Numbered from the stretch's first letter, positions 8,846-53,410 are shown. The stretch is DNA of 64,000 nucleotides from Oligoflexia bacterium (GCA_903881565.1 CAIRTR010000299.1:2645-66644), one strand, 5' to 3'. Notes: a model not told the origin generated them from the sequence alone. Numbers and translations are program-made.

Positions 8846-9153
8846 TTGAGATGCCCCTCTTTCGTTTTTTCGTGGTCGACAGAGTCTTTCTGCGCCAGCT
8901 CCGTTACTCGCATTATGTTCCGTTGTCATCTATTACATCGGCCGTGCCAACAAAAAATTGATTAAAGATTTCAACATAATCTCTAATCTAGGACCCCTAA
9001 ACCCAAAGGGATGAGGGGTCCTATGAGTAATTATTTCATAGTGGTTTCATAAGGCTAGAAAATATTACACCACTTTGCTTGACGCGGAGCGGCATAAAAT
9101 GTAAAATAATATTTATAAACGGGGTATCTCACTGTAAGAAGGCGGGGTTTTTT

Positions 9154-13939: not shown

Positions 13940-13993
13940 GGATGTCAAAAACTGATCGCTAAACACTTTCGCATTGAATGCCGAAACGTTGAC

Positions 13994-14410
13994 ATGGCAG
14001 CCGACGAAGTGAAAAGCCAATCGAGACATATTTTTAAGTCGGATGACGAGGTTCTCCTCCAATCACTTAAAGAATTCAAGAATGAGCGAGCCATATTTGT
14101 TCAGGAAGTTATCGAAGTTGATGGCGGATTCGCGTTTAGCGAAAGGCATTTTTTTGATCAGCACGCGGATATGAGTAAGTGGCTCTGGGATATACCGGGA
14201 ACCTCGAAATACGTGGCCGTCGCAGTGAGTGATACCGAGCAGATGCTGACCTATAGCGGAAAGAAGTTCGTAATGTCATATGCGAATATTGCTAGCAAGC
14301 CTGAAGTCACCTATTACGCGTCCTTCTCCAAGTTGCCGAAGTACAAGATCAACGAGAGCGCATTGAAAGAATCAGTTTCTGAAATTGTTAGCAGTCTTAA
14401 AGGCGAATGA
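13994..14410 (+). CDS. Hypothetical protein, 138 aa
   Basis: ORF only; no recognisable motifs. Lower GC than the flanks. Convergent and overlapping with the next ORF. Confidence 0.4.
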   Translation: MAADEVKSQSRHIFKSDDEVLLQSLKEFKNERAIFVQEVIEVDGGFAFSERHFFDQHADMSKWLWDIPGTSKYVAVAVSDTEQMLTYSGKKFVMSYANIASKPEVTYYASFSKLPKYKINESALKESVSEIVSSLKGE

Positions 14411-14777
14411 GCATTTGAAACTCTCGCTTTGCGAGATCTTTAAGTAGGGATCCTTTTTCTGCGGAGTTCAAAGTGGCGTATTCTTCTTCGATGAAACGGA
14501 GAATGTGCCGCACGAAAAGATAGATCCGGCCATAAAACTCGCTGTCTTCGCCCTCCCATTGATTTGAGTCTGTCTGTTGTTCCGCGAGATAAATGTAAGA
14601 CCCTGTTCGCCTGTCCCGAGCTACTAAGTGAAGAGCTATGTTGCCATTGGAGTTTTCGGCCCGTATGAGATCAAATTCGACTTCAACTGTCGGTCTTTTT
14701 AATTGAGGATTATCGCTCCTGACTTTTGAGGTGAGGCAGCTTACTATATTCCGAGTTTGGGAGGGCAAGTCGTGCAT
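14397..14777 (-). CDS. Hypothetical protein, 126 aa
   Basis: ORF only; no recognisable motifs. 14-nt convergent overlap with the 13994..14410 ORF. Confidence 0.4.
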   Translation of the reverse strand: MHDLPSQTRNIVSCLTSKVRSDNPQLKRPTVEVEFDLIRAENSNGNIALHLVARDRRTGSYIYLAEQQTDSNQWEGEDSEFYGRIYLFVRHILRFIEEEYATLNSAEKGSLLKDLAKREFQMLIRL

Positions 14778-14887
14778 TCTCGGTGCGTATGCGATCCCTG
14801 GGCCAATTGTGGGTAATCAATGGAGTCCTTAGTCGGTGTCGCTAACTTTTCGGTTTAAAGCGGTAATTCCTTTCGATCTGAATACAT

Positions 14888-16552
14888 TTGATTTTGGTAG
14901 CGCCTGTTTCTGAGCTCCGGAAGTCGTACATCCGGAGGTGGAAGCGGACCCTGGAGGTGAGGGTGCCAAATTTCTGGCAGTTTTCGCTCCCAAAGCTCGA
15001 AATTCCTCTTTGTCAGCTTAATTCATTAAGTGCATTCGATCTAAATTTATTCAGTTTTTCTCCCGATGAGTCCTTCGAGGGGGATCGCCTGAAAACGCCG
15101 TTTTGTAACCATCTTGCTGGTCTGATTTTGAGCCTAATGCTTTTGGGATTTGGAATCTCGGGCGCAATTGCGGGCCCAAAGCAAGCTGCGCCTAAGCAAG
15201 CTGCGCCCATTGATCAGGAAAAAGCACTTTTGATTCTGAATCCACATGATGCCCTTTCGGTTCGCGCTGATTTGTTCGCAAGTGCACAGAAAACTATCAC
15301 TTATTGCGTTTACGGCTTTTCCAACGATGCGACGGGTTTGGAAATGCTCACCCTGCTTCGCGATGCGCGCAGGCGTGGGGTTGCGGTGCGATTGATCGTC
15401 GATTACATGCACAACGAACTTCCCGTATCGATGATGCTCCATTTGAAGAATGAGGGCATCGAAATTCGTGAGTATCACGCACCCTCGTTTATGCGCCCAA
15501 GGGATTTCGGGAAGCGAATGCATGACAAGTTTATCGAAGTCGACACTGTTCACTCGATTACGGGCGATCGCAATGTGGGGGATATTTATTTTGGGCGAAC
15601 GGCCTCGCAATCAATGGTGAGTCGGGATGTGTATCTCTACGATCCTTTGCATGCGAGTGCCGCGCGAGAACATGCGGATCGCCTCTGGGCGAGCGAAGAG
15701 GTCACGCCTCCGAAACTCAAAGAGGTCACCGCCTATGACCTGAATGCGGCAAAGGATCGCCTTGATTTTGCGCGTAAGCGCTTGGTGGAACGCAAGCTCA
15801 TCAACAATCTGGGGTCACGCTCAGATCGATGGCTCAAGCATGCATTTAACGTAAAGAGCACTGAGTTTTTTTATGACAATCCCGGCCTTAAGGGCAAGCA
15901 GCCTGGAGCTGCAGAACGCGTCTTAGAAGGGATTCGAAAGGCGAAAGTCTCGCTGGTAATTGAAAATCCGTATATCGTGCTCTCGCCCGAATTTTTTCAG
16001 GAGCTCAAGGCGGCCTCGGAGCGAGGCGTTTCGATTGAGGTGTACACCAATTCTCGAAAAAGCCTTGATGTGCCTCTTATTCAAGAGGCCTTGGAGGAGA
16101 GTAAGCGCCGTCTTGCGAAATTGGGAGCGACCATTTGGGAGCTTCCGGGTGAAAACGCCCTGATTGACAATATGGAAAATGGTGTTGTGATTGACAAAAA
16201 GAAACCAAGGCTTTTTAGGAGCGCGCATTCACCCAATTTTGAAAAAAGAGTTCCTAAGTGGATTCGCTCCCAAGATGGATCTTCGCTTCATGCGAAAACC
16301 ATGATCGTCGATGGGGAGACCTCTTTTGTCATGTCATTGAATTTTGACCCTCGTTCTCACAAATTAAATACCGAAGTGGGGAGTATTATCGAAGGCAAAG
16401 AATTCGCAGCCGATCTACGCAAGGGGCAGATCGAAACACGAAGCAAGTCGGGCTACCTTTTTTTTGCTGACCACGGTCTGGTGCTTTGGCGTGACGATGA
16501 GGGGAGTTGTTTGCGGAAGGTGCTGAGTGTACTGTTGCGGAGTCATTTTTAG
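14888..16552 (+). CDS. Phospholipase D-family protein with two HKD motifs (PLD/cardiolipin-synthase-like)
   Basis: Two HxKxxxxD motifs: MHDKFIEVD and LHAKTMIVDGE. Hydrophobic segment LAGLILSLMLLGFGISGAIAG. The start is uncertain; the internal ATG at 15137 (MLLGFGISG...) is an alternative. Confidence 0.75.
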   Translation: MILVAPVSELRKSYIRRWKRTLEVRVPNFWQFSLPKLEIPLCQLNSLSAFDLNLFSFSPDESFEGDRLKTPFCNHLAGLILSLMLLGFGISGAIAGPKQAAPKQAAPIDQEKALLILNPHDALSVRADLFASAQKTITYCVYGFSNDATGLEMLTLLRDARRRGVAVRLIVDYMHNELPVSMMLHLKNEGIEIREYHAPSFMRPRDFGKRMHDKFIEVDTVHSITGDRNVGDIYFGRTASQSMVSRDVYLYDPLHASAAREHADRLWASEEVTPPKLKEVTAYDLNAAKDRLDFARKRLVERKLINNLGSRSDRWLKHAFNVKSTEFFYDNPGLKGKQPGAAERVLEGIRKAKVSLVIENPYIVLSPEFFQELKAASERGVSIEVYTNSRKSLDVPLIQEALEESKRRLAKLGATIWELPGENALIDNMENGVVIDKKKPRLFRSAHSPNFEKRVPKWIRSQDGSSLHAKTMIVDGETSFVMSLNFDPRSHKLNTEVGSIIEGKEFAADLRKGQIETRSKSGYLFFADHGLVLWRDDEGSCLRKVLSVLLRSHF

Positions 16553-38634: not shown

Positions 38635-40254
38635 TTATGGCTTTTTTCGGATGGCACTAATGCCCCATAGCCCCGCAATCCCCAAGATCAAAGCCAGAGG
38701 CCCAAACCAATCGCCCCATTTGAGAATCAGGGTCGAAATCTTCGGCATGATCGGGATTTTCACGTTCAAAATCGTAGGAATAAATTTTTCAGTCTTCTCA
38801 ATGATCTCACCATCGGGCATCACCAGGGCCGAAATCCCGGTGTTCGTGCCCCTAAGTTGGGGGAGCCTCGTTTCTATGCTTCGAAAAGTCGTGAGCGCCA
38901 GGTGAAGCTCAGGCTCGCCACGCGCGCCAAACCAAGAGTCGTTTGTGATGTTGAGAATGAGTTGGCTTCCGTTTCTTGCGGCCGCCACGACATAGTTCGT
39001 GAACAGCGCTTCGTAGCAAATGATCGGTCCCACGTTAAGAACGGTCGACGTATTTAGTGTCACCGGCACGACCTCTGGCCCCACCCCTCGTCCGAAGTTT
39101 CCCACTTGCGGGAACGCCTCTTTGAGAAACGAGAAGGTCTCGGCACCCGGAATATATTCTCCAAAAAGCAGCAGGACGTTTTTGCGATAAATGCGAAGAT
39201 CCAGTTCGTCCGGAAATCCCGAGCGCGGTTGGGGAAAAAGGAAAAAGAAGGCATTATGATCCTTGTTATTGAAGCGATCATAGCCGCCAAAAAGCAGCGG
39301 TGTTTTTCGCTCTTTTACGAAGCTCTCCACGCGCTGATCGCGCGCCAATTCGTCGGCCGTTTGGGGGTGTTTGAAGTTTGAAGGGTACGCCGTTTCGGGC
39401 CAGATAAGCACTTGCGGTTTAGGCGTCAAAGCCAGTGCTTGATCGGAGAGTCCAATGTAGGTGTCCAATACTTTTTGGCCGGCACCTCGCACGCCTCGCT
39501 CGGAGGCGATCTTGTCAAAATCCCCGATATTGCCCTGAATGACGGCCGCCTGCACGAAGCGCTCAGGGTTGGCCTGAATGCCTTGGATCTCTTGCAGGCG
39601 ATGAACGCCGTAGGTTCCTAGAACGATGCCCAAAAGGATCGGCCCCAAAAGAGGAACGACGCGGGCGAGGCCCTTCGTCTGTTTCCAGGTTTTGAGGGTC
39701 CGGTAAAGTCCGTCGTTTATCCAAAAAATTAGAAACGTCAACAGCGGCGCGCCCCCGAGATCTGCACATTGTCTGAGCCATTTTTGCGCGTATTGGGAGT
39801 GCCCAAGCGTATCGACAAACAGTTTCGGAATCACCCAATCAACGCCCGTGTAAAGAAGGGAAATCAACACGGATAACAACGCTACCGGAATAACTCTGCC
39901 CGTGTGACCCGTGCGTTCCAGAAAAAATCTTCGCAGCACCGCGAAAGCCAAAAACTGTGGCTGCCCAATGAGTGAAAATCCTGCGAGTCCAACAATGGCC
40001 AGAATCCAGGGGAGATTGGCAAACTCTTGCAGCACAAAGGCCACCCAGTAAAAGCCGCCCAGACTCATGAAGATGCCCAGCCACATCGCCTGGGCCACGG
40101 TTTGTTTCCAGCTCTTGCAGCGGTCCAAGACAAAGAACCAAGGGATGAGGCTAATCCAAATAAGGGGGGTGAGATCCCAGGGCGGGAACGCAAAGACGAT
40201 CAGAGCTGCCGATAATAATGTTAAAGGGGCGGGGACCCAATCCTTTTGCTTCAC
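38635..40254 (-). CDS. lnt: Apolipoprotein N-acyltransferase
   Basis: N-terminal multi-TM domain plus a C-terminal CN-hydrolase (nitrilase-fold) domain. 539 aa. Confidence 0.8.
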   Translation of the reverse strand: MKQKDWVPAPLTLLSAALIVFAFPPWDLTPLIWISLIPWFFVLDRCKSWKQTVAQAMWLGIFMSLGGFYWVAFVLQEFANLPWILAIVGLAGFSLIGQPQFLAFAVLRRFFLERTGHTGRVIPVALLSVLISLLYTGVDWVIPKLFVDTLGHSQYAQKWLRQCADLGGAPLLTFLIFWINDGLYRTLKTWKQTKGLARVVPLLGPILLGIVLGTYGVHRLQEIQGIQANPERFVQAAVIQGNIGDFDKIASERGVRGAGQKVLDTYIGLSDQALALTPKPQVLIWPETAYPSNFKHPQTADELARDQRVESFVKERKTPLLFGGYDRFNNKDHNAFFFLFPQPRSGFPDELDLRIYRKNVLLLFGEYIPGAETFSFLKEAFPQVGNFGRGVGPEVVPVTLNTSTVLNVGPIICYEALFTNYVVAAARNGSQLILNITNDSWFGARGEPELHLALTTFRSIETRLPQLRGTNTGISALVMPDGEIIEKTEKFIPTILNVKIPIMPKISTLILKWGDWFGPLALILGIAGLWGISAIRKKP

Positions 40255-40263
40255 GAACCTATC

Positions 40264-41451
40264 TTATTGCGGCTGACCTGGCTCGGAAAGCAGATTCAGC
40301 ATCGTGACGGGTTTTTGTGCCATCAGGCTGCCGGGTTTCGGCAGTTCAAGGGGGGTACTCAATGCCATGAGGGCTGAATAAGCGTTCACTCGGCCGCCGG
40401 AGGCCACTTTTTCAGATAAGCCGGGGAGCCTGTCGACTGACTTGAGAATGAGTTGCTTGAGCTGCTGGGGGGTGAGTGAAGGATTGTGAGCTAGGAGCAG
40501 GGCTGCGATTCCGGTGACAAACGCCGTGGCTTGAGACGTTCCCGTCATGAAGCCGTACCGTCCGCCAGGCAGTGTGCTGTAGATGTTCTCGCCAGGAGCC
40601 GCGACATCGACCGCTTTTTTGCCCCAATTGGAGGAGGGCAAAATCTGGTTATGGATGTCAGTTGCGGCCACAGAGATGATGTTGCTCAAGTGATATGCCG
40701 AAGGATAGTAGTAATTCTGGCTTAGGTCCGTGTTCTGGTGCTCGTTGCCGGCAGCGGCCACAAACAGAATTCCTTTGGCTTCAGCTTTTTTGATCGCGAG
40801 GTATTCGTCTTCGCTGAACTCGGGGCCACCGCCGCTATAGTTAATGATGCGAGCGCCGTGGTCCACGGCATACTCAATGGCTTTGATCGTGTTGCGCAGG
40901 TTTACGGGGCCGGTGTTGCCATCTGAATAATATTTCACAGACATGATTGAAACTTTTTTAGCGACTCCGCTGATGCCCACCTTTGTGTTAGTGACCGCGC
41001 CGATGATGCCCGCAACGTGAGTGCCGTGCCCATGGTCATCGCGAGGGTTTGCTTTGTCGACGACAAAGTTCCAGCCATAAACTGAGTTATTGGATTCGTT
41101 GGGATCATGCCAGACGTTCTGATTTAAGTCTTGGTGCGTCGAATCGATGCCGGTATCAATGACGGCAACGACGACGCCGCGGGAGCCCTCTTCGATTTTC
41201 CAGGCTTCAGGAGCATGAATGTGGGAAGGGGCTTCAGAGTTTGCCAAGCCCCAGTTTTTGAAACTGATGGCGGGAAGCTTTTGGGGAAGAACGGGTTTCT
41301 CAGTGTTCGGCAAACCAAACGCCGTGACCGTGGCAAGGCTGGTCAGGATGGCGACTAAGAAACCGACTTGTAGGGATGATCGTTGCATACTTTTCTTCTC
41401 CACAGGCCAACACTCAGCAAGCTCCATGCCTCTGCGGGTCAAAAACGACAC
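40264..41451 (-). CDS. Secreted subtilisin-like serine protease (peptidase S8)
   Basis: Catalytic triad motifs DTGIDSTHQDL (Asp), HGTHVAGIIGA (His), GTSQATAFVTGIAALL (Ser). Signal peptide. Confidence 0.85.
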   Translation of the reverse strand: MSFLTRRGMELAECWPVEKKSMQRSSLQVGFLVAILTSLATVTAFGLPNTEKPVLPQKLPAISFKNWGLANSEAPSHIHAPEAWKIEEGSRGVVVAVIDTGIDSTHQDLNQNVWHDPNESNNSVYGWNFVVDKANPRDDHGHGTHVAGIIGAVTNTKVGISGVAKKVSIMSVKYYSDGNTGPVNLRNTIKAIEYAVDHGARIINYSGGGPEFSEDEYLAIKKAEAKGILFVAAAGNEHQNTDLSQNYYYPSAYHLSNIISVAATDIHNQILPSSNWGKKAVDVAAPGENIYSTLPGGRYGFMTGTSQATAFVTGIAALLLAHNPSLTPQQLKQLILKSVDRLPGLSEKVASGGRVNAYSALMALSTPLELPKPGSLMAQKPVTMLNLLSEPGQPQ

Positions 41452-41586: not shown

Positions 41587-42564
41587 TTAAGGAAAGCCAG
41601 GGAGCGGCTTTTTAAGGAGGCCCGCTTTCAAGAGCTCCCAAGCCAGCTCGTAGTCTGCCCCGTCCGTGTTAGTGAGTCCTAAGGAATCAATGATCGTTGG
41701 CGTAGCCGCAGGGTGCACCCCCGCAAGAATCACGAAACCCTTTTCGGCCCATAATTGCGAGATCGCCGCAGTGCCATCCGAATACTTTGCAATGATAGAA
41801 CCGCTGCCTGCCGAAGCAGTGACCGGCCCTCCGTACCAGAGGAGTTCTCGAGACGGTCGATTTGGAAATCGAGTCCGAGCCATGGTGTAGTGCAGCCCTT
41901 GGATCCCCATGTAGGTCGGCTGTTGAACGGGAAGGTTGAGGATCCCCAGCCCATACGAGGCTTCGCCTTCCGGCGTTGTTTCGGGCGACGCTGCTATCCA
42001 GGCACCTGCGCAAAATCCGAGATAGCTTACCGCCTTTTTTCGCACAGCTTCTCTTAGATTGAAGCGAGTAGCGGGGGTGAGTGCATCGGTGATCGTTTGC
42101 GAATCTCCTCCCGGGAAAATAATGAGGCCATAGGACGCGAGTTTCTCTTGCGTGAAGCCGTTGATTTCGGCTGCGTCTGTGACATGCGTGCGCACCTCTT
42201 GAAGCGAGAGAATGCTCCAAAGCGCTGAAGCTTCAGCGGTCCATGTGCCCGTGCCCGCGTAGATAAGAACCTCGGGAAAGACAATCGGAGCTTCGGGGGC
42301 ATCCGGTATACGAGGGGCTGAAAATGAAGGAACCGGGACCGGCGAAATCACGGCTAGCGGAGTCCCCCGGCTTCCAGCAATGGGAGGGGCGGGTTCCTCA
42401 TGGGTCGGAGGCGGAACGATCGGTGGAATTTCTGAATACACCGGCGGTGTTGCAGGTGGCGTGCTTTGTTGGGGGGGGGCGGGAACGCAGCCTCCCGCGG
42501 TGACAATCGTCGTAAGCAAAGCCGCGAACAAAACAAAGAATTTTAGAATACTCTCACGCACCAT
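41587..42564 (-). CDS. Pro-rich lipoprotein with a class-I glutamine-amidotransferase-like (GATase1/BPL_N-like) domain
   Basis: Internal start MVRESILKFFVLFAALLTTIVTAGGC (lipobox). ...LIIFPGGD... and ...YLGFCAGAW... (Gly-x-Cys-x-Gly nucleophile elbow). Confidence 0.45.
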   Translation of the reverse strand: MVRESILKFFVLFAALLTTIVTAGGCVPAPPQQSTPPATPPVYSEIPPIVPPPTHEEPAPPIAGSRGTPLAVISPVPVPSFSAPRIPDAPEAPIVFPEVLIYAGTGTWTAEASALWSILSLQEVRTHVTDAAEINGFTQEKLASYGLIIFPGGDSQTITDALTPATRFNLREAVRKKAVSYLGFCAGAWIAASPETTPEGEASYGLGILNLPVQQPTYMGIQGLHYTMARTRFPNRPSRELLWYGGPVTASAGSGSIIAKYSDGTAAISQLWAEKGFVILAGVHPAATPTIIDSLGLTNTDGADYELAWELLKAGLLKKPLPGFP

Positions 42565-42583
42565 AAAGCACCTCAAATCACCC

Positions 42584-43405
42584 CTATAGAATAAAACCTG
42601 TAATCCACGCGCCAACGCTCCACGAGTTCGCTCTGGCCGGAGAAAAGGGAGACCCATCACTTGCAGGACTCAGCGAAACAAAGGGTTCAATACTCAACGC
42701 GCTCATAGGTTTCCATACAAGTCCAGGCTCCAGGGCTAGGTCATTCTTCGAAGTCTGAACCCATCCCCAACTCTTGATATGGTTATAGTTGAGCGAGACG
42801 CGGGTTTGCAGCGAAACGCTGGAGCTAAGGGCGTAAGTGACCGAGGGTCGTACGTTTCCCATGACGTCAAACCAATAAAGATCCGTAGAATAGGGGTAAT
42901 AACGAACCCAGTGTTGAAGCCCAAGCCCCAAAGGGGAGGCGCCCAGGCGCGCGTGTAGAATCTGACAGGAGCCCGGCGAAACGCCCAGACCTACACTTCG
43001 CGAGGCCGACGTTAAGGGGGGCTCTAGATTCAGATTTGCCCAAATGCTCCACTCATCCGAGAGGTTCGCAAACGTCGAAAATCCAACTCGAGGGTTGCCT
43101 AAGCTCCATTGAGAATCGTGGGATTCGCCCGCATAGCTCAACGTGTTTTGCGTCTGGGCCTCAAGTTGAAAACTCTCGCTTAACCGAAAGCCTAGCGTGA
43201 TCAGGTTCCACATCGAGGACAGATCGGGGGTTCGAGCGGCCTGCACTTCACTGTAATAAATCACCCGAATGCTTTTCCCCTCATTTTGATAGGAGGTCTC
43301 CGCGCGGGCCGAGGTCAAAGGGGGCAGCGTTCCTAAGATTAGACCGAAGATTAGCCCGAAGATTAGCCCTAAACTTGGGTTGATGAATGCAAGGGCGCGG
43401 CTCAT
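42584..43405 (-). CDS. Putative outer-membrane protein
   Basis: Signal peptide carrying a GLIFGLIFGLILG repeat. Beta-rich; ends ...AWITGFIL. Confidence 0.45.
   Translation of the reverse strand: MSRALAFINPSLGLIFGLIFGLILGTLPPLTSARAETSYQNEGKSIRVIYYSEVQAARTPDLSSMWNLITLGFRLSESFQLEAQTQNTLSYAGESHDSQWSLGNPRVGFSTFANLSDEWSIWANLNLEPPLTSASRSVGLGVSPGSCQILHARLGASPLGLGLQHWVRYYPYSTDLYWFDVMGNVRPSVTYALSSSVSLQTRVSLNYNHIKSWGWVQTSKNDLALEPGLVWKPMSALSIEPFVSLSPASDGSPFSPARANSWSVGAWITGFIL
43335..43370. repeat. 12-nt tandem repeat x3 (AAGATTAGMCCK) within the signal-peptide coding region
   Basis: Seen directly. Encodes GLIF-GLIF-GLIL. In-frame copy-number variation is possible. Confidence 0.5.
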
Positions 43406-44373
43406 GCCACTTTTTCGCTTTCCTCAACTGTTGGCGCTTGAGGTTTTGAAAAATGAACGTTCTCAAATACCGCGACCTTCACCGGCGCAAGCGGGCGACG
43501 AAGATTCTCGCTGAGCCTTGGAGTCCTGCTTAGAATCGCAAGCCACACGGTTAAGACGTAAGGCAAGCTTAAGAGCGGTAAAATGGGCTGTCGCAGGAGC
43601 TGATTAAGCGCGAGCGTCACAAAAGATGAAAGAACGCAAAAGAGAATGATCGTCTTCCCACTAAAACGCTCATGAAAAGAAGACAAGCCCAGCCCCAGTA
43701 GCCCCGCTGAATAGGTGAGCAGCCCCTTGCTGAGGTCTGACGAATCGGTGATCAAAATCGAAGCGGCCCCAAGTGCCACGACTGTTCCTATTAGAAAGTA
43801 GATCGCTCGTCTAGGACTGAAAACAAAAAGCAGAGCGCAGATAAGTCCCCCAAACAGGGGACTGGGGAGGAAGAGCATGCGTCCCATACTCAGAAAAGGC
43901 GTTGCGATACCCAGCGGCTCAGGACCAAAGGGAGAAGTTCTTGGCGTGAGCCAGCTTTCGCCCGCACAAAGGGAAACCAGCCAGATCGCAAAAATGTAGG
44001 GAATGATGTAGGGACTTAATTTCCAATGTGACAGGATTTCGTAAAAGGCTTTTGTGACAAAGGGAACGCAAAGCGTTCCTCCGATCAAGAAAAAGAAAAA
44101 CGCAGGGGAGAAGTCATAGAGGCTCGCCAGAGCGATGCCGAAAAAGAAACAATTAATCGGAATTAATCCCGAAGCTTTCAACATCATGGGCGTTGAGGTG
44201 CGGGTTTGAGCCGCGTAACCTATGAGGGAGGCTCCCAGTCCGCAGTAAAACAGCGGGAGATCAAAAAGCGCAAAGCTTGCTATAAACAGGGCCCCGAAAA
44301 GTGCGCTTTCGAGGAACAAGCTTTGACTCATGTTGCGAAGATATTTTTTGCCGTGATCAAACAACTGTTTCAT
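43402..44373 (-). CDS. Polytopic inner-membrane protein (hypothetical transporter-like)
   Basis: 323 aa, multiple hydrophobic segments. 4-nt overlaps with both neighbours. Confidence 0.5.
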   Translation of the reverse strand: MKQLFDHGKKYLRNMSQSLFLESALFGALFIASFALFDLPLFYCGLGASLIGYAAQTRTSTPMMLKASGLIPINCFFFGIALASLYDFSPAFFFFLIGGTLCVPFVTKAFYEILSHWKLSPYIIPYIFAIWLVSLCAGESWLTPRTSPFGPEPLGIATPFLSMGRMLFLPSPLFGGLICALLFVFSPRRAIYFLIGTVVALGAASILITDSSDLSKGLLTYSAGLLGLGLSSFHERFSGKTIILFCVLSSFVTLALNQLLRQPILPLLSLPYVLTVWLAILSRTPRLSENLRRPLAPVKVAVFENVHFSKPQAPTVEESEKVA

Positions 44374-45032
44374 AGGTCAATCCATTCTCCATAGCTAAAG
44401 ATTTTGTCGCCCCAGTGCAGAAGTCGTGGGCACTCTGTTCGCAAAGCAAGAAGCGCTCCGAAACCGGTTTCTTGATCCGGCGTAAACCAGTTGCCCCAGG
44501 TGGAGTCGTAGAATTTTGCTTGGTTACCCTCCATCTCGAGGACGCATAGTTCGTGATAAACAACTTCGTTTCCGATCCAGGGAAAAGTCGCATGGGTCTT
44601 TTCCTTTTTTTGGTCCTTTAAGGGTTCTGGTAGCGGGTTTTTTGGGGGCTTTTTCCAAAGCCCTTTCCAATGCGTGGTGCAAGTCGGATTGAAACTCAGC
44701 AAAGCTTGCGCGGGATGGGCTTCGAACCCTTGTGCAGTAAAGGCCTCGCGCGCCAGAGCCGCAAAAACGCCGCAGTCGAGGGTTTTCATTTTGACAAGTT
44801 CGCACCATGCAATCGGCCATGCTGAGGGGCCCCAAGTGAAGAGTTGTGAGAGCCACGTCGGCGCTCTCAGCTCATAGCGCGAGAGCGCGGAGATCTGCAT
44901 GGAGCGGGCGTAACCTAAAAACCACATCCGTGCCTCTTCACAACAACGAGCGTCGTGGTGGACAATGTGAGAGGCGGGATGCTCAACCCAGGCTTGAAAT
45001 GAGGATTCTTTTTTAACCACGTCCAAAGCCAT
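44370..45032 (-). CDS. Hypothetical protein; possible papain-like/transglutaminase-like Cys-His fold
   Basis: ...KTLDCGVFAALAREAF... (Cys within a helix-start motif) and downstream His residues. Weak inference. Confidence 0.4.
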   Translation of the reverse strand: MALDVVKKESSFQAWVEHPASHIVHHDARCCEEARMWFLGYARSMQISALSRYELRAPTWLSQLFTWGPSAWPIAWCELVKMKTLDCGVFAALAREAFTAQGFEAHPAQALLSFNPTCTTHWKGLWKKPPKNPLPEPLKDQKKEKTHATFPWIGNEVVYHELCVLEMEGNQAKFYDSTWGNWFTPDQETGFGALLALRTECPRLLHWGDKIFSYGEWIDL

Positions 45033-47391
45033 AACTCATGCTCCTTTCGTAACCGCCTGCATCCCCGAAAATCACCAAGTCGCCGATTTGCACGTCAGGG
45101 GGGATGCTGATGTTTTGTCCCAGAATGTCGTCTTCCATACAAATGCGTCCCAGGATCCGCGCTTTTCCCGGTTGGGCCAAAGCGAACGTTTTTCTTTGCG
45201 GGACGTGTGCCACTCCCAGTGGCACACGTGCCACCTCGGATGGCACACGTCCCGCTTCTTGGAAAAAGATTCGGTGAGGAAACGCCTGGGCCAAGGGAAG
45301 TTCGGCGATGCAGGCGTCGACCACGATTTCCTTGATGACTTCGGTGTCGGATTCGGCGCGAGCTTCAGACGAATTGGCTTTGGTATTTTTGTTTTTCCGG
45401 ATGTCTAGAATTCGTGTGAAGAGGATTTCGCTCTCCTGGGTCAGGGAACGCCCCGGCTCCAGATACAAAGTCTTGACTTGGGGCAGCTGCGAATGAACCC
45501 GTTCGCCCAGCGCGGCGAGGTTGAGTTTTTCAAGATCCTCCGGAAAATATCCTCCGCCTAGATCGATCGTATGCACCGGCAGGTCGCAGAGCTGTTCAAG
45601 GCCTTTGCACCAGTAGAGGAAACTCTCGAGCGCTTCAATCCAACGTTTGAGTCCGATGGACCAGCTGGGCATGTGAAAATGAAAGGCAAGGCCGGGCTGG
45701 CGCTTGATTCTTTTCAAATCCTGGAGTGCAGACAAGAGACCTTCAAAGTCTTGATAGTTGGAGAGCGTGTTTCCAAATCGGGAGTGAATCTGGGGCAGCT
45801 GAATCCGGAGGCCCAGGGTCTTGGGTTGCTCTTTAGCCTTGAGCACTCGGCTAAATTCTTCTAAAGAGTCGCAAAACAGGAGTTGAACGCCGGTGATGGG
45901 ATTGTCGGTGAGAGGCCAGAATTTTCCGGGTCCGTTGAGAATGATCTGGTGAGGGGCGAAGCCAAAGTTCAACGCCCGCTGAACTTCTTTTTGGGTGATA
46001 CACTCAGCATAAAAGCCGCAATTCTTAGCCGCCTGCAGGTGATGATCGGTTGGACTAGTCTTTACGCTATAGCCAATTTGAATGCGAGGCTTTCCGGTTG
46101 CACAATAGGTTTGTACCTTCTGGTGAAGGGTCTCGAATATCTGTTGAGTCCATAGCGGGAGGGAGATTCGGCTTGGGGTTTCTTCGGAGAAAAACAGGGC
46201 AATGCTTGAGATTTCGGCAGCCAAGTTCGCAGGAGGAAGGGGGAGCAGCGGCACGACTTCGCTTGTGGATTGCTCTTCTAAATTTGGGAGAAGCGCTGAA
46301 AACGACGGTCCCCCTTTGCCGTGCTTTCCATCAGTGGCCCAGGTGAAGGTACTGGGATCTTTCGGGCGCGGCAGGCCCACGGCGTCTTTAGTCGGGATTT
46401 CGTAAACCACCCGTGTGAAGGTGGCCGAAGGTTTAATGGCTTCAAGCAGCGGCAGTTTCCAAAGATGCGAGATGAGTTTGCCGGGGAGGTTTGCCCCCAT
46501 TAGGGCCGAGCCATAGATCCAGGCTGGAAAACGCGGATTGCATTCGATGATCCACTTTCGGCCATCGGGGTCGCGTACGAATTCAAGCTCGCCGCCGCCC
46601 GTCCAGCCGAGTTGCTGCACCATTTGTCCCAGGTTTTGAGACATCGATTCGTCCAAAGGTTTGACCCGGCCCGCCCAGGTTTTTCCTTCCGGCGTGAGCT
46701 GTAGTTTTTCCAGATGGACCGCCCCGAGCAATTGGCCCTGATGGGCGGCGAAACTGATGGTCTCCTCATTGCCAATCACGTTGCGCTGTAGAAAAAGATT
46801 GGAGGTTTTCCAGTTGGATTTGAGATAGGCCCGCGCGCGCTCGAATACGCTCCAAGAGGAGATGCGAAGAGCGTCGTGATAAGGGCTTTTCAGCCAGCAC
46901 TGCCAGCAATGGGTGCGAAGGAACGAATGGATTTCGGCGTCCGGCAGATTGGCTGAAATATAGTCCGGGACTTGAAACTCAGCGAACTCGCCTGCTGCGC
47001 TTGAACTCACAGGCCAGTTTTCCAGAATTTTTACTGCGGGCTTGGCCGTGAATTCGAGTGCTTCTTTGTTGGGAGCCAGCAAATGAGGGTGGGTGCCAAA
47101 ATGTTTCGAAAGCCAGTAGACCTCCATATCAAGGGCGGCAATCCACAAGTGTCCTTCTTCTAAACGAGCTCGAATGAAGGCTGCATGTTCGTCATCCTGA
47201 ATTTGGCTCCACTGCGGGAGCAATAATTCTTCGTTGATGATTGAATCGTGTAACCCCGAACTCCCGTGCGTATGATCGACTCCGACCAGGGTCACGTCCG
47301 GAAACGCTCTTCGTAAACAGCGGGCGATGCCCAAACCTGAACTTGGATTTTGTCCCGAATGCATGCCGGTGATATAGATTTTCTTTTTCAT
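45013..47391 (-). CDS. Fusion protein: N-terminal ATP-grasp ligase + C-terminal fold-type-III PLP-dependent decarboxylase (DapDC/ODC-like)
   Basis: ATP-grasp: ...GWTGGGELEFVRDPDGRKWIIECNPRFPAW.... Decarboxylase motifs in order: YSVKTSP (PLP Lys), LNGPGK, HFHMPS, DLGGGY, EPGRSL, GRICMEDDIL (catalytic Cys), FGDAGGYERSMSYGF. Confidence 0.8.
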   Translation of the reverse strand: MKKKIYITGMHSGQNPSSGLGIARCLRRAFPDVTLVGVDHTHGSSGLHDSIINEELLLPQWSQIQDDEHAAFIRARLEEGHLWIAALDMEVYWLSKHFGTHPHLLAPNKEALEFTAKPAVKILENWPVSSSAAGEFAEFQVPDYISANLPDAEIHSFLRTHCWQCWLKSPYHDALRISSWSVFERARAYLKSNWKTSNLFLQRNVIGNEETISFAAHQGQLLGAVHLEKLQLTPEGKTWAGRVKPLDESMSQNLGQMVQQLGWTGGGELEFVRDPDGRKWIIECNPRFPAWIYGSALMGANLPGKLISHLWKLPLLEAIKPSATFTRVVYEIPTKDAVGLPRPKDPSTFTWATDGKHGKGGPSFSALLPNLEEQSTSEVVPLLPLPPANLAAEISSIALFFSEETPSRISLPLWTQQIFETLHQKVQTYCATGKPRIQIGYSVKTSPTDHHLQAAKNCGFYAECITQKEVQRALNFGFAPHQIILNGPGKFWPLTDNPITGVQLLFCDSLEEFSRVLKAKEQPKTLGLRIQLPQIHSRFGNTLSNYQDFEGLLSALQDLKRIKRQPGLAFHFHMPSWSIGLKRWIEALESFLYWCKGLEQLCDLPVHTIDLGGGYFPEDLEKLNLAALGERVHSQLPQVKTLYLEPGRSLTQESEILFTRILDIRKNKNTKANSSEARAESDTEVIKEIVVDACIAELPLAQAFPHRIFFQEAGRVPSEVARVPLGVAHVPQRKTFALAQPGKARILGRICMEDDILGQNISIPPDVQIGDLVIFGDAGGYERSMSYGFGRG
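45199..45252. repeat. Nested inverted repeats (GGGACGTGTGCC...GGCACACGTCCC; ACGTGTGCCACT/AGTGGCACACGT) inside the decarboxylase coding region
   Basis: Seen directly. Produces the peptide repeat VARVPLGVAHVP. Confidence 0.4.
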
Positions 47392-47546
47392 GCGAGTTCC
47401 TTTTTTTGAGCGCAGTTCTTGGATATGCTGATCCAGTGTTTCTCACGAAAGAGGCTTAAAAGGAGTTGTTTTTTAATAAATCGACCGCCGCAGTTGGTAG
47501 AAGCGCAGCGCGAATTGCGAGGGGTTGCAAAAACCAGGAGAGAGTT

Positions 47547-48005
47547 ATGCAGAATGCAATTGAGTTACAGGACGCAATCCCTCAGGAGCACCCTCTGGGG
47601 TGTGCGGTCGCATGTGTCGCGTATCGGCGGGGTGTGAGTTACGAAGACGCCCACTCATTATTTGTCACTCCCGAGAATGCCTGGGGGCGTGGGTATTATT
47701 GTGCGGAGGTGGTAGCGGCACTAAATAAAAAAAGCAGGCTTGAATATGTTTTTTCGAAAGCGGATGTCTTGAAAAAATCGGAACTCAAGAAAATCCTGCT
47801 CACCGAGGGCACGCTGGTTTTTGTGGGGAGCTGCTCCCGCTATCCTTTGGGGCATTATTTAGTGAGAGCGACGGAAAAGGCAAAACACAGAGCCCAGTGG
47901 ATGAATCCCTGGATCAATGCGCCTCGAATGATCCCGGTGCAATCGGGGTTTGAGTCAAAGCTCCCGGGCCCTGTCGAATATGTTATGTGGGAGCCGGTTC
48001 TTTAG
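47547..48005 (+). CDS. C39-like (papain-fold) cysteine peptidase/acyltransferase-domain protein (Peptidase_C39_2 / BtrH_N-like)
   Basis: ...QEHPLGCAVACVAYRRGVSYEDAH... (GC nucleophile at a helix start, as in C39 peptidases) and a downstream ...RYPLGHYLV... His. Divergent from the ATP-grasp/decarboxylase gene. The longest ORF starts at 47466. Confidence 0.45.
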   Translation: MQNAIELQDAIPQEHPLGCAVACVAYRRGVSYEDAHSLFVTPENAWGRGYYCAEVVAALNKKSRLEYVFSKADVLKKSELKKILLTEGTLVFVGSCSRYPLGHYLVRATEKAKHRAQWMNPWINAPRMIPVQSGFESKLPGPVEYVMWEPVL

Positions 48006-49248: not shown

Positions 49249-50598
49249 ATGTTGCACGCGAATCCTAAGATGAAGCACACAGCTAATTGGCTTAGCGTAC
49301 TGGTTTTAATGACCTCAATATCAGTGATAATGGTGCCCACCTTTGGGTTTTCTGCGACAGTATTTTCGGCCCCCGAGCCCAATGACATAGCGAGAAACCT
49401 GGTCGACGAATTCAAGTACGACACTCTTGAGCAAATGAAGGTTGCGGGCCTTGAGCAGTCCCAGGTTTCGGCCCAGCCGTGGTCGGGTTGGTATTGGCCC
49501 CTGAACGAAGGGGGATTAGCCTATCGCTATGCGGATATCACGTTTCCCAGAGGCGCTAATTGGCCAACGGTTTCAAGTTACCTCCTGAGTACCATCGGGT
49601 TTGGCCCAGTTAACAGGCTTTCGCCCGCCGAAAAATATGATCTCTTGCTGGGGGATGGCAATTTTACTATGACCCGGATGATGATCCAAATTGCGGAGGA
49701 TCATAAGGTCGGCGGAAATGTCGATGCATGGATGGGGTATTGTACGGGCTGGGCCAATGCCGCGATGATGATGCCTAGGCCTGCTCATTCGGTTATCGTG
49801 ACAGCGGCGGATGGAAAAACTCGGATTGATTTTCGTCCGAGCGACATCAAAGCTTTGGGGGCGCTCCTCTGGGCAAACGGGGGTTCTCCTGCACGTGTTG
49901 TAGGTGGCTTGTGCCAGGAGAGCCCGGTGCGGCGTGATCCTGTTACTGGGCGTGCAATTGATCCAGCATGTAGGGACACAAATCCGGCCACTTTTCACCT
50001 TTCGATCGTCAATCAGATCGGCGTAAGCCATCGATCGTTTTTGATCGATAGCGACTCGGGCTATCAGATCTGGAATCAGCCGGTCTCAAACTACAGCTAC
50101 TCTTACTTTAATCCCGCGACAGGAAAAGCCGCGCCGCTCGAAGAGGCAAGCGTCGCGCTCAGTGATTTTCCAAATGATGTGTTTAAAGGGTTTCGCGCAC
50201 CGGGCACAAAATATGTGGTCGGCGTGGAGACGCAGCTTACCTTTATTTATGAAACGCGGCCTAGCGCTCTCCCTACTGACTCGCCGGAAACCGACGATAA
50301 ACGAGTTCCCGTTTATCGGTATGATCTTGAACTTGATGCCTCAGGGAAAATAATCGGGGGAGAGTGGTACTCCCGTTTGCATCCGGATTTACTTTGGGTT
50401 GCCCCGCCTGGCTCAGATCCAGCCACACGAGGGGATTCATTCGTTCATCCGGGGGAGCACTGGGATCCTGAGCAGCCGCTACCTTCGTCCTGGCTAACGG
50501 CTGCAGCGTCATCCGAGCAGTACGTTCAACCGCTTGGCGTGATTGTCGAGAAACTTTTTGAATGGGCGAGTGATGTAAGCACTCCTGCTCAGCAGTGA
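49249..50598 (+). CDS. Secreted hypothetical protein (possible papain-like Cys motif GYCTGWANAA)
   Basis: Signal-like N-terminus. 449 aa. Confidence 0.45.
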   Translation: MLHANPKMKHTANWLSVLVLMTSISVIMVPTFGFSATVFSAPEPNDIARNLVDEFKYDTLEQMKVAGLEQSQVSAQPWSGWYWPLNEGGLAYRYADITFPRGANWPTVSSYLLSTIGFGPVNRLSPAEKYDLLLGDGNFTMTRMMIQIAEDHKVGGNVDAWMGYCTGWANAAMMMPRPAHSVIVTAADGKTRIDFRPSDIKALGALLWANGGSPARVVGGLCQESPVRRDPVTGRAIDPACRDTNPATFHLSIVNQIGVSHRSFLIDSDSGYQIWNQPVSNYSYSYFNPATGKAAPLEEASVALSDFPNDVFKGFRAPGTKYVVGVETQLTFIYETRPSALPTDSPETDDKRVPVYRYDLELDASGKIIGGEWYSRLHPDLLWVAPPGSDPATRGDSFVHPGEHWDPEQPLPSSWLTAAASSEQYVQPLGVIVEKLFEWASDVSTPAQQ

Positions 50599-51137: not shown

Positions 51138-51387
51138 TCATTACCAAGGGACTTTGGCCGGTTAATTACCCAGCGATTCTGACCACCTATCGGCGTCATA
51201 ACTCCAAAACTTTTGAGAAATCTGTAGGCGGTTTTCAGTTTTCTGTAATCCGATTGCAGTACTGTCTGTCAGTTACCGTTTCATGACCTGTTGCGACAGG
51301 GCTATGACTGAGCAATTGTCGAGTCCCCGTAAGTTTTTTGGTCCCACTTTCTGTGAGAACCAAAAAAACTTACGGAGGACTTTCTCG

Positions 51388-51696
51388 ATGTTGACTCATT
51401 TCAGAACCTACAATCTCGCCGTCCAGTTTCATCACGCGTGCTGCTCTGCAAAGATGCCTGGGTATCTAAAGTCGCAGCTCCTGAGGGCATCCTCGTCGAT
51501 CGCTCTTAACCTTGCGGAGGGCTCTGGCAAACCCACTCCGAAGGATCAGCTCAGGTTTTACTTCATTGCCTTAGGGAGTTTGCGCGAGTCACAGGCGGCA
51601 CTGGATCTTGCTCCTATTCGGATGCCAAGCCTTATTGCCCTCGCTGATCACGTCGGCGCAAGCCTCTACAAGCTCTGCCAGTCGATTCAAAGTTGA
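51388..51696 (+). CDS. Four-helix-bundle protein (TIGR02436 / 23S-rRNA-IVS-protein / Avd-like family)
   Basis: Signature ...ALNLAEGSGKPTPKDQLRFYFIALGSLRESQAALDLA (NIAEGxG...GSxxE). About 102 aa from the internal Met. Preceded by a 16-bp-stem hairpin at 51327-51375. Confidence 0.65.
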   Translation: MLTHFRTYNLAVQFHHACCSAKMPGYLKSQLLRASSSIALNLAEGSGKPTPKDQLRFYFIALGSLRESQAALDLAPIRMPSLIALADHVGASLYKLCQSIQS

Positions 51697-51706
51697 TCGA
51701 TGATGG

Positions 51707-53410
51707 TTACCCCTCTACAGCGGCAAGCTTCGGTTTTACCCAGCGTGGACCTTGCAGTCTCAGGAAGAGATGTACCGCTCGATAATTCGGAGTTTCAATT
51801 TCAAGGGCGTGTTTACAGGCCTCATTGACTCCATCGCGATGATGATCTTTTGCAAAGCCAAGAACTCCAAAAATGGTTTTGGTATCGATAAAACCATTGC
51901 CCCGCTCCAAGACCATGAGGATTAACTGATCGACCCCAGTCCCAAGGTTTTGCGCCGATTTTCGATAAAATGAGGTGGGATGCATCGCTCGTTTCCACGG
52001 CCCTTTGTGTTCAGGCTTAGTCGAATTAATTTGATGAGAGCCGGTGAGTCTTTGATGCGTTTCGATCAGCTTGCCCTCTTGGTAAATGCGAACCTCTGAG
52101 ACCTCTCCGATAACCCTCATTTTTTGTCCTATGTATTTTTCATCCACTGAATAATAGCGATTGAGATGAACAACGTGGCCATCGGCTCTGACCTTTTGCT
52201 CGATCGTAAGATCGAGTTGGGCAGGGACCGGAGCCTCTTCGTTACAAGCGGGGACTATTTTAAGATTGGCTTTTTCTGGCTGTTTTACCTTGCTGACCTC
52301 TATTTCTTTGCCAGCAAAAAACACCTTCCAACTCAAATCTTGATAGGTTCTGACCTCGATCCTTTGCTTATGAATCGAGTGCTTCAACGGGGAGTCAATT
52401 CGGTAGATCTCAGTGTCCCAGCTAAAAGTATGATCACGAGCTACCGTTCGATCTTCTTTTAGACAAAAGGTTTCATGGAGATCAAATCCCTGCGGTACCG
52501 GTTTGTAGGCTGTTTGAAGATTCGCCGGTGTCACTTTAAATTTGGAGGCGTACTCGTTTGGTAAAAACTGATCCTGCAAATATGCATTGGCCCCGTCATA
52601 GTTGTCGATGCCTCTGATCCTCATTTCCGGGATCAGGCGATCTTGAAGCGTCCCCCACAATCTCTCGATCCGTCCTTTTGCCTCTGGGGAGTTTGCAAAA
52701 ATAATATGAGTCCCAAGCTCTTCGAGTGCTCGCTTGACCTGTGAGAAGTGCGCTCGCTTGGATCCTCCAAAAATCCCTGCGCGGTCCACGTAAAGAATTT
52801 GAAAAATCCCCATTTTTTCTATGATTTTTTGCAAAACCCTCATGCAAGAGATCGTGTCCTCAGCTGGGAAGAATTCTCCAAAAGCTACGTCGCTATCGGC
52901 GTCATCAATGGCTGCAATTAAACACGAAGGCTTATCGCCAAACCATCGATGATGACTCCCATCCATCTGAAGCATCAGGCCAGTCTGCTGCATTCGCTCT
53001 CGTCGTTTTCGAACCTTTGGGGCACGACGTTTCGCCTTCTTCACCATCTTGATCTCGTGACACCAACGTCTGAAGACTTCTCGCGTGACCACGAGATTTT
53101 CTGTCGCCTTCAATTTTTCAAGACAGTGGGTCATGTTGAAGTCGAAGTACTTTTCTTTAACCAGAGATTGGACTGCCTTCTTCAACTCCTCATCGGAGCG
53201 GTTCGCTGGCACCGCATCACAGTTTCCGTGCTTTACGAACAAAACCCCCTTCTGCAAATATTCGGCAAGATAGCGCCGAAGGGTCCGCTCTGAGACATTT
53301 AGAATCTTTTGACCTTGGTCACGGTTCATGATCCCTGATGAAATTTTGACGATAATATCTAACTGCAGTTGCTCGGTTGCACTCATACTGAACACCTCCA
53401 AATCCCCCAA
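51707..53410 (-). CDS. DDE/rve-type transposase with an N-terminal HTH (ISNCY/IS1202-like; family assignment tentative)
   Basis: N-terminal HTH region (NVSERTLRRYLAEYLQKG). Catalytic-core-like blocks LQMDGSHHRWF (D) and ILYVDRAGIFGG (D). 567 aa. No IstB-like partner. Confidence 0.75.
   Translation of the reverse strand: MGDLEVFSMSATEQLQLDIIVKISSGIMNRDQGQKILNVSERTLRRYLAEYLQKGVLFVKHGNCDAVPANRSDEELKKAVQSLVKEKYFDFNMTHCLEKLKATENLVVTREVFRRWCHEIKMVKKAKRRAPKVRKRRERMQQTGLMLQMDGSHHRWFGDKPSCLIAAIDDADSDVAFGEFFPAEDTISCMRVLQKIIEKMGIFQILYVDRAGIFGGSKRAHFSQVKRALEELGTHIIFANSPEAKGRIERLWGTLQDRLIPEMRIRGIDNYDGANAYLQDQFLPNEYASKFKVTPANLQTAYKPVPQGFDLHETFCLKEDRTVARDHTFSWDTEIYRIDSPLKHSIHKQRIEVRTYQDLSWKVFFAGKEIEVSKVKQPEKANLKIVPACNEEAPVPAQLDLTIEQKVRADGHVVHLNRYYSVDEKYIGQKMRVIGEVSEVRIYQEGKLIETHQRLTGSHQINSTKPEHKGPWKRAMHPTSFYRKSAQNLGTGVDQLILMVLERGNGFIDTKTIFGVLGFAKDHHRDGVNEACKHALEIETPNYRAVHLFLRLQGPRWVKPKLAAVEG

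Follow-up and report, generated by a model that had tools for sequence, protein, structure and literature searches.

A conserved gene pair was identified in the window (the whole 64,000-nucleotide stretch of DNA that was analysed), comprising a fusion of an ATP-grasp ligase with a PLP decarboxylase and, directly downstream, a transglutaminase-like Cys-His-Asp protein. These two genes, with or without a urea-transporter (UT) family homologue, make up the conserved core and usually occur alone in unrelated contexts. We favour, at about even confidence, a reading in which the fusion would ligate and then decarboxylate an amino acid and the transglutaminase-like protein would transfer the acyl group, often alongside a UT channel. 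All open reading frames of the original prediction were recovered at the same coordinates (Table 1).

Table 1. Coordinates of the core genes, the coupling junction and the accessory genes in the window.
Feature	Position	Strand	Basis
Fusion of ATP-grasp ligase and PLP decarboxylase, 792 aa	45013..47391	-	Pfam and fold comparison
ATP-grasp ligase domain, N-terminal (fusion residues 1 to ~345)	46357..47391	-	
PLP decarboxylase domain of alanine-racemase fold, C-terminal (fusion residues ~388-792)	45013..46230	-	
Coupling junction: the final fusion codons (GGYERSMSYGFGRG, then stop) contain the Shine-Dalgarno AAGGAG and the 220-aa ATG	45013..45045	-	Direct sequence reading
Transglutaminase-like Cys-His-Asp protein, 220 aa	44370..45032	-	Fold; 20-nt overlap with fusion
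UT family channel homologue, 323 aa	43402..44373	-	Pfam UT; 4-nt overlap with both neighbours
Porin-sized protein, 273 aa, N-terminal hydrophobic signal-like segment; lineage-specific accessory	42584..43405	-	
GATase1-like (BPL_N-type) putative lipoprotein; accessory	41587..42564	-	Pfam BPL_N 3.3e-08, SNO 1.5e-3
Divergent gene, 152 aa; accessory	47547..48005	+	Conserved Q13 / G18-C19 / G102-H103 pattern

The prediction that an ATP-grasp ligase is joined here to a complete fold-type-III decarboxylase was borne out, with intact motifs throughout. Orn_Arg_deC_N (2.2e-15) and Orn_DAP_Arg_deC (3.8e-06) were both matched above the Pfam cut-off, and these matches (PF02784 and PF00278) were accompanied by the PLP lysine, His, the Gly-rich phosphate loop, EPG, the catalytic Cys and the C-terminal Tyr. 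The motifs that had been quoted (YSVKTSP, LNGPGK, HFHMPS, DLGGGY, EPGRSL, GRICMEDD and GGYERSMSY) were found in the fusion. Across 26 diverse relatives (39-58% identity to the fusion), K444, H571, H573, D610, G612-614, E645-P-G647, C751 and Y781 were invariant, and the catalytic residues of both halves were invariant in relatives down to 39% identity. By fold, the decarboxylase half was nearest to SbnH, DAPDC, BtrK and FslC, a clade in which all members other than DAPDC act on amino acids that are already conjugated (PMC7857480).

The decarboxylase domain is preceded by a disordered linker (residues 347-382). The N-terminal half comprises pre-ATP-grasp, central and C-terminal domains with an E-x-N Mg/ATP site, which is the ATP-grasp fold. 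It is a divergent subfamily that lies under the curated cut-offs of Pfam (ATPgrasp_Ter, E = 0.0084, 16.3 bits against 29.1) and NCBIfam (PRK12767, 17.9 against 218). Its best structural matches were a CPS-like protein and PylC; sequence similarity to these ligases (2pn1, 4ffl) was marginal (PDB profile E of at least 0.02) and, unlike the protein described here, they have no fused decarboxylase.

The 220-aa protein has a transglutaminase/NAT-like fold with an invariant Cys-His-Asp set, in which the catalytic Cys lies at a helix N-terminus and the His and Asp lie on adjacent strands. It had been described as papain-like; the papain-superfamily Cys-His-Asp fold was upheld, and the protein is more precisely transglutaminase-like. 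Its nearest known counterparts are the transglutaminase-fold acyl transferases AdmF, the arylamine N-acetyltransferases and the amide synthase GdmF. AdmF, a transglutaminase homologue from andrimid biosynthesis, is cited as a known condensation catalyst in PMC7183216. Pfam and NCBIfam searches with the 220-aa protein returned nothing, including no C39 or BtrH_N profile in Pfam, and a Transglut_core-type Pfam profile matched 0 of 39 members of its family at E up to 10. The family has 295 representatives at 50% identity.

Start and stop codons overlap as originally predicted. The 220-aa start overlaps the fusion stop by 20 nt, with AAGGAG placed 8 nt upstream of the ATG, and the 220-aa/UT and UT/273-aa junctions are 4-nt overlaps of the ATGA type. 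The same -20 nt overlap between the fusion and the 220-aa gene was seen in many loci across phyla. Two database proteins in which neighbouring genes appeared to be joined were considered as Rosetta-stone cases and rejected: P0343 (fusion plus transglutaminase-like) is without the C-terminal decarboxylase motif, and in P0322 (transglutaminase-like plus UT) the DCG region is scrambled. Each resembles a frameshift artefact arising from overlapping genes, so neither was counted as evidence.

The predicted conservation of gene order was confirmed for the core: the transglutaminase-like gene lies directly after the fusion in all 74 fetched loci that keep both genes, spanning more than 10 phyla, so the pairing is far beyond chance. 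Relatives of the fusion made up more than 740 protein clusters among 8000 candidates scored, and species-representative genomes contain at least 595 stretches that encode one. Culturable carriers include Pseudomonas, Collimonas, Nocardioides and Actinokineospora. Public records label the relatives 'diaminopimelate decarboxylase' or 'hypothetical', and literature searches returned no description of the fusion or of its coupling to UT.

The third gene of the run, originally noted as a polytopic membrane protein, belongs to the UT family, an identity that had been missed. Like known urea transporters (UT-A/UT-B, 3k3f, Yut), it is a member of Pfam UT (PF03253; 2.8e-47, 161.7 bits against a cut-off of 25) and aligns over its full length with 3k3f, the matches to solved UT-A/UT-B and to this bacterial urea transporter covering residues 11-282. 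It differs from them in being coupled to biosynthetic-type enzymes, with no urease genes in the annotated neighbourhoods of the module, and in scoring below the cut-off of the Yut equivalog (TIGR03441; 89.3 against 274.6). A UT gene follows the transglutaminase-like gene in Bdellovibrionota, Myxococcota, Methylomirabilota, an Actinomycetota MAG, Pseudomonas, Collimonas and some Sphingomonadales, and in distant phyla it overlaps that gene or starts within ~10 nt of it. It is present in only ~20 of the 74 loci that have both core genes. Its tight coupling suggests either that a small amide metabolite has gone unrecognised or that UT channels have a further class of cargo.

A decarboxylase of this kind working with an ATP-grasp enzyme has been characterised only in the butirosin and closthioamide pathways, where the substrate is tethered to a protein, free Asp does not serve as substrate and the third partner is a transacylase of the papain superfamily (PMC7183216). 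In closthioamide biosynthesis these roles are taken by CtaD (ATP-grasp), CtaF (a PLP decarboxylase of the Orn/DAP/Arg family), CtaG (papain-like transacylase) and CtaE (PCP), and 95% of CtaD-type loci have a PCP gene (PMC7183216). The original prediction had likened the locus to BtrJ/BtrK/BtrH of butirosin; BtrK is among the closest structural relatives, and the closer precedent CtaD/CtaF/CtaG had been missed. With closthioamide, three enzyme types are in common: an ATP-grasp enzyme, an alanine-racemase-fold decarboxylase and a Cys-His-Asp enzyme of the papain superfamily. There, a tethered amino acid is the substrate of the first two, working in tandem, and the third makes the amide bonds. 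The likeness of the ATP-grasp half to BtrJ and CtaD is one of enzyme type; its best structural matches are those given above, and no solved structure of BtrJ or CtaD came up among the matches.

The differences from closthioamide are several. Here the ATP-grasp and decarboxylase enzymes are a single polypeptide, the thiol enzyme is transglutaminase-like rather than of the C39/BtrH family, a UT channel is coupled, and the unit has two to three genes and another range of taxa (Acidobacteriota, Proteobacteria, Bdellovibrionota and others, as against gene clusters of Firmicutes and Actinobacteria). No PCP gene is nearby. As predicted for a carrier protein (ACP), no PF00550 match was found in or adjacent to the operon in Pfam listings of 10 annotated neighbourhoods, the sole instance lying at the L089 edge, 10 kb from the operon, and no PP-binding domain was found in the fusion by Pfam. 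Compared with the 95% of CtaD-type loci that have one, a defining element of the precedent is thus missing nearby, though a carrier may be encoded elsewhere in the genome. Against butirosin, whose BtrJ, BtrK and BtrH act with the carrier BtrI, the enzymes are fused here, no BtrI-like carrier or aminoglycoside genes are present, and nothing matches the BtrH_N or C39 profiles.

On the favoured reading, the ATP-grasp domain would convert a carboxylate to an acyl phosphate and couple an amino acid to a nucleophile by a linkage that spares the alpha-amino and alpha-carboxyl groups of that amino acid. The fused PLP domain would then strip the alpha-carboxylate from the tethered amino acid, so that, for example, Glu would yield a 4-aminobutyryl unit and Asp a beta-alanyl unit, or an acyl-diamine would come from a diamino acid acylated on its side chain. 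The Cys-His-Asp triad of the transglutaminase-like protein may carry the acyl group and transfer it to an amine acceptor, or release it, and in many lineages the UT-family channel may let a small neutral compound, substrate or product, cross the inner membrane. As the best reading, the proposed chemistry would be that of BtrJ/BtrK/BtrH and CtaD/CtaF/CtaG in a compact, fused form that operates with no dedicated carrier-protein gene. Counting against this reading are the missing carrier-protein gene nearby, the best matches of the ATP-grasp half (a CPS-like protein and PylC) and a partner that is transglutaminase-like rather than of the BtrH/C39 family. In addition, the module is mostly alone rather than within a biosynthetic gene cluster, and the urea-sized solutes of UT channels suit most imaginable products poorly.

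A more specific form of this chemistry, which we consider distinctly unlikely, is a carrier-free, self-templated amide machine. The ATP-grasp domain would load Glu or Asp directly as a thioester on Cys87 of the transglutaminase-like protein, and the fused PLP domain would decarboxylate it in place. The aminoacyl thioester would then be transferred to an acceptor, or would cyclise to give a small neutral amide or lactam, with the UT homologue as its way out. A gamma-glutamyl thioester is the same intermediate that transglutaminases form. If this form were true, amide building that dispenses with a phosphopantetheinyl carrier would be a new route, and a UT-family channel would gain a non-urea metabolite as cargo. 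The favoured reading extends the rare amide-forming logic of ATP-grasp, decarboxylase and papain-fold enzymes, previously seen only in butirosin and closthioamide, to a fused form, to loci that have no carrier-protein gene and to far broader taxa, and a core of strictly two genes lends itself to direct testing in vitro.

We regard as rather unlikely a route on free small molecules in the style of SbnE/SbnH or FslA/FslC. A PylC-like ATP-grasp enzyme would attach an acyl group to a free diamino acid (Lys, Orn, Dab or Dap) at its side-chain amine, and the decarboxylase would produce an N-acyl diamine. The transglutaminase-like protein would act as an amidase for recycling, activating or regulating that product, and UT would export or import a small component. 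The CHAP amidase of glutathionylspermidine synthetase/amidase offers a parallel for the amidase role. However, the citryl-amino acid decarboxylases of NIS siderophore pathways, SbnH, FslC (FigC) and AcsE, partner with NIS synthetases and not with ATP-grasp ligases (PMC7857480). Siderophore genes are absent here, a mere recycling amidase leaves the strict 1:1 translational coupling with the Cys-His-Asp protein unexplained, and N-acyl diamines are not obvious UT substrates.

Tagging of a protein or peptide is improbable. In that case a TTL/RimK-like isopeptide addition would leave a pendant alpha-carboxylate to be trimmed by the decarboxylase, and the transglutaminase-like protein would be the cognate peptidase or transamidase, much as vasohibin is the cognate peptidase for TTL. 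No conserved candidate substrate gene lies beside the module, however, and clustering of the neighbours gave no recurrent small open reading frame; SET and TauD genes are near the module in only a few loci of one family, and the coupling to UT is left unexplained.

Lower still in probability is a route in which urea, or an amide resembling it, enters through UT for catabolism or assimilation, is activated by the ATP-grasp enzyme and is processed as an adduct by the others. Translational coupling of UT in several phyla would suit this, as would the weak resemblance of the ATP-grasp half, in sequence and fold, to urea carboxylase and amidolyase, which reflects general ATP-grasp similarity. Genes for DUF1989, which we take to be urea-carboxylase-associated, lie within ~6 kb in L004/L005 and L006. 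Against it, that proximity is limited to two contexts, UT is missing from most of the loci, no biotin carrier or carboxyltransferase is present, and an amino-acid decarboxylase would have no obvious job. An ordinary LysA (diaminopimelate decarboxylase) joined by chance to an unrelated domain is scarcely credible: DAPDC is a top sequence match and some relatives carry that label, but the fusion scored only 69.9 on the TIGR01048 equivalog (cut-off 297.9), its substrate loop reads CMExD where the aligned DAPDC has CESxD, the ATP-grasp half is conserved as much as the decarboxylase half, and the transglutaminase-like gene is always paired with the fusion.

The genes flanking the core were compared with those of 87 related loci, including the Bdellovibrionota locus L001. 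The locus had been framed as an envelope operon that includes an S8 protease and Lnt, and this framing was not sustained: homologues of both were near the module in 0 of 87 loci, and the porin-sized and lipoprotein genes are accessories confined to Bdellovibrionota loci. Transfer onto an envelope component is unsupported. TGase_elicitor and RlmL were likewise rejected as members of the system, with no homologue near the module in the 87 loci. The 'c2' family, an upstream partner in relatives, is absent from the window, and a PDB profile search with it was empty. A promoter and terminator scan gave counts no higher than in shuffles.

The porin-sized, GATase1-like and 152-aa genes recur only in Bdellovibrionota loci. 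Homologues of the 152-aa gene lie divergently beside the fusion in L011 and, across a gap of 42 bp, in L090/L091; in L001 the homologue is two genes upstream. Q13, G18-C19 and G102-H103 are invariant in this family, and the Q...GC...GH order fits the pattern behind the original C39/BtrH_N-like call, which profiles did not confirm; Pfam and NCBIfam gave no significant C39 or BtrH match (best Peptidase_C39 E = 0.18, in 2 of 9 members, not significant), a PDB profile search returned nothing relevant, and the 152-aa and 220-aa families were unrelated in profile-profile comparison. The 273-aa protein, putatively of the outer membrane in the original prediction, had no Pfam or NCBIfam match, and the same slot in L001 and L090 holds a gene of 284-294 aa with no detectable sequence similarity to it. 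The gene for the GATase1-like lipoprotein is also present in L090/L091. The protein shares 44% identity with its L001 equivalent, including the nucleophile-elbow motif GFCAGAW, and the start at 42564 in the public gene call gives a signal peptide ending in AGGC.

Every gene named in the original prediction was present in the ORF list. The leading gene encodes the fusion, an ATP-grasp domain joined to a PLP decarboxylase domain, and is followed by genes for a transglutaminase-like (TGase-like) protein and a urea-transporter (UT) family membrane protein. The sequence was read for the ATG of the TGase-like gene, which lies 20 nt inside the 3' end of the fusion gene, 8 nt downstream of an AAGGAG Shine-Dalgarno sequence encoded by codons of the conserved GGYERS motif. 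Since this Shine-Dalgarno sequence and start codon are made of the codons of the decarboxylase C-terminal motif GGYERSMSY (window 45030..45050(-)), protein motif and coupling signal are mutually constrained. The next two junctions, TGase-like/UT and UT/273-aa, are 4-nt overlaps.

Coordinates of the module and its neighbouring genes in the window
Feature	Coordinates	Strand	Source or remark
Fusion, 792 aa	45013..47391	-	ORF list
TGase-like protein, 220 aa	44370..45032	-	ORF list
UT family protein, 323 aa	43402..44373	-	ORF list
273-aa protein	42584..43405	-	ORF list
GATase1-like ORF	41587..42660	-	public gene call starts at 42564 (325 aa)
S8 protease	40264..41451	-	ORF list
Lnt	38635..40254	-	ORF list
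152-aa small gene	likely start 47547	+	public gene call

Both halves of the Orn/DAP/Arg-type decarboxylase scored above cut-off in the fusion (Pfam), and its ATPgrasp_Ter match was sub-threshold. LysA was ruled out (69.9 bits; NCBIfam cut-off 297.9). By sequence, the closest solved structures (each at ~1e-9) were DAPDC, FslC (an N-citrylornithine decarboxylase) and BtrK. The fusion was aligned with 26 relatives (39-58% identity), across which the PLP lysine K444, H571/H573, D610-GGG, E645-P-G, C751 and Y781 are invariant on the decarboxylase side, and K229, E268, E270 and N285-PRFPAW on the ATP-grasp side. An AlphaFold2 model built from this alignment was confident (pLDDT 82.8, pTM 0.83); residues 347-382 form a disordered linker in it. 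Both domain assignments were thus confirmed, by profile matches, invariant active-site residues and the model.

The 220-aa protein had no match in Pfam or NCBIfam. DCG (C87), YHE (H160) and D176 are invariant across 39 relatives, together with further Cys, His and Trp residues. In a confident AlphaFold2 model (pLDDT 89.5, pTM 0.87), C87 is placed at a helix N-terminus and H160 and D176 on consecutive strands, and the protein is assigned to the transglutaminase-fold Cys-His-Asp enzymes, a family comprising hydrolases as well as acyl transferases. A profile search of 1.84 billion proteins gave 295 representatives, nearly all standalone and ~200 aa long. In one member (P0377, 376 aa) the TGase-like domain is fused to a C-terminal GNAT acetyltransferase, and in another (P0291, 584 aa) to a ~385-aa Cx7CxxC domain (CSWARQGGCTVC motif) that had no Pfam hit and is possibly radical-SAM-like. 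Two other apparent fusions, one with the ligase-decarboxylase and one with UT, look like frameshift artefacts.

The polytopic protein of the original prediction is a membrane protein, but its identity had been missed: by sequence it is assigned to the urea-transporter family (Pfam UT, 2.8e-47), with full-length alignments to mammalian UTs and to the bacterial urea transporter 3k3f and a score under the Yut equivalog cut-off. The 325-aa protein is GATase1-like (Pfam BPL_N, 3.3e-08), with a GFCAGAW nucleophile elbow kept in relatives. No family was detectable for the 273-aa protein. Each Bdellovibrionota locus encodes a protein of 273-294 aa between the UT gene and that of the GATase1-like lipoprotein (window 42584..43405(-), L001 11924..12778, L090 1098..1982), with no sequence similarity detectable between the window protein and those of L001 and L090. 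The 152-aa protein had been called C39/BtrH_N-like; its Q...GC...GH pattern is invariant, but it had no significant C39 or BtrH match, and the call is retained as a lead only. No relation was found between the 152-aa and 220-aa families.

More than 740 full-length relatives of the fusion were found among 8000 scored candidates, and with one genome taken for each species, a scan gave at least 595 stretches encoding one. The 79 fetched loci span Acidobacteriota (Pyrinomonadaceae), Sphingomonadales, Methylomirabilota, Myxococcota, Bdellovibrionota, Verrucomicrobiota, Actinomycetota, Gemmatimonadota, Chloroflexota, Nitrospirales and one Bathyarchaeia MAG; Pseudomonas, Collimonas, Nocardioides and Actinokineospora isolates are among them. 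A 220-aa homologue lies directly 3' of the fusion in 74/74 loci retaining both (own ORF calls and phmmer), and the two genes overlap in every one, very often by the identical 20 nt. In Bdellovibrionota, Myxococcota, Methylomirabilota, an Actinomycetota MAG, Pseudomonas akapageensis, Collimonas and some Sphingomonadales, UT comes next after these two genes, either overlapping them or at most ~10 nt away; the majority of acidobacterial and sphingomonad loci are without it. The full window layout (152-aa gene divergent from fusion, TGase-like, UT, ~290-aa protein, GATase1-like protein) is repeated in L090/L091 and mostly present in L001, and in L011 the three-gene core is accompanied by the 152-aa gene only. 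S8, Lnt, RlmL and TGase_elicitor genes showed no linkage to the module across 87 related loci. The proposed envelope role, with transfer onto an envelope component, is not supported.

The DAPDC-related alanine-racemase-fold decarboxylases FslC/FigC, SbnH, AcsE, MccE and BtrK form one clade, whose non-DAPDC members act on amino acids already conjugated to something else (PMC7857480). Pairing of such a decarboxylase with an ATP-grasp enzyme has been characterised in butirosin and closthioamide only: the ATP-grasp enzyme puts Glu or Asp on a carrier protein, the decarboxylase takes the tethered amino acid as its sole substrate form, and the amide is formed by a papain-superfamily transacylase, BtrH or CtaG (PMC7183216). 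A transglutaminase homologue, AdmF, is a condensation catalyst in andrimid biosynthesis (cited in PMC7183216). These three predicted catalytic types are all found in the window module, with the difference that two are fused and the third is translationally coupled. For these reasons we favour, at about an even chance, a machine in which the ATP-grasp domain would ligate, the fused PLP domain decarboxylate and the TGase-like protein transfer. The butirosin-like interpretation is partly supported. A carrier-protein gene occurs in 95% of CtaD-type loci (PMC7183216), and the main departure of the window-type operon is that none was found in or adjoining it (precomputed Pfam listings, 10 annotated neighbourhoods). 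Possibly a carrier gene lies in another part of the genome. A second explanation, rather unlikely, is that the substrates are free small molecules, like those of SbnH and FslC. That the invariant Cys of the TGase-like protein is itself the thioester template is quite improbable. The presence of UT would imply that a small neutral substrate or product crosses the inner membrane. Full-text literature searches found neither the fusion nor its link with UT described. The module is very widespread and compact and can be tested directly; it may bring to light amide assembly without a carrier, or a cargo new to UT channels.

Neighbouring genes were also recorded. A ~240-aa family, absent from the window, is encoded immediately 5' of the fusion in 49 loci (Pyrinomonadaceae, Allosphingosinicella, Verrucomicrobiota and others), and is what the acidobacterial and sphingomonad loci without UT have instead. 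It is very well conserved and often duplicated (L006 6070..7605, L019 8328..9913; alignment A5), with an invariant HRDH...H (H160-R-D-H163, H210); sequence searches of Pfam and PDB gave no match, and it may be an oxygenase-like, metal-dependent partner. In Pyrinomonadaceae, a TauD/TfdA-family dioxygenase flanks the module in 8 loci (L012 8645..9622(-)), and a 144-aa SET-domain gene lies directly 3' of the TGase-like gene in 3 (L019 12936..13370(+)). Genes of DUF1989, a family linked to urea carboxylase and to the metabolism of guanidine, lie a few kb from the module in two unrelated contexts (L004/L005 16885..18211(-), L006 4013..4606(+)); this may be chance or hint at a nitrogen/urea metabolism link. 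In Collimonas antrihumi (L021), a same-strand class-V aminotransferase gene (8391..9641(+)) precedes the module and has a divergent LysR regulator on its far side, and an OsmC-YcaO fusion gene follows on the opposite strand (13964..16168(-)). Two genes from the window module, 49249..50598(+) encodes a protein of 449 aa that starts with a hydrophobic segment and has a 'Transglutaminase elicitor' match (PF16683, an oomycete family; Pfam E 5e-33), with no homologue in the 87 related loci. Near the locus, ORFs resembling a 23S rRNA intervening-sequence protein (51283..51696) and a Mu transposase (567 aa, 51707..53410(-)) were named from public gene calls on the same contig, and GC falls to 0.47-0.50 across 51283..53410.
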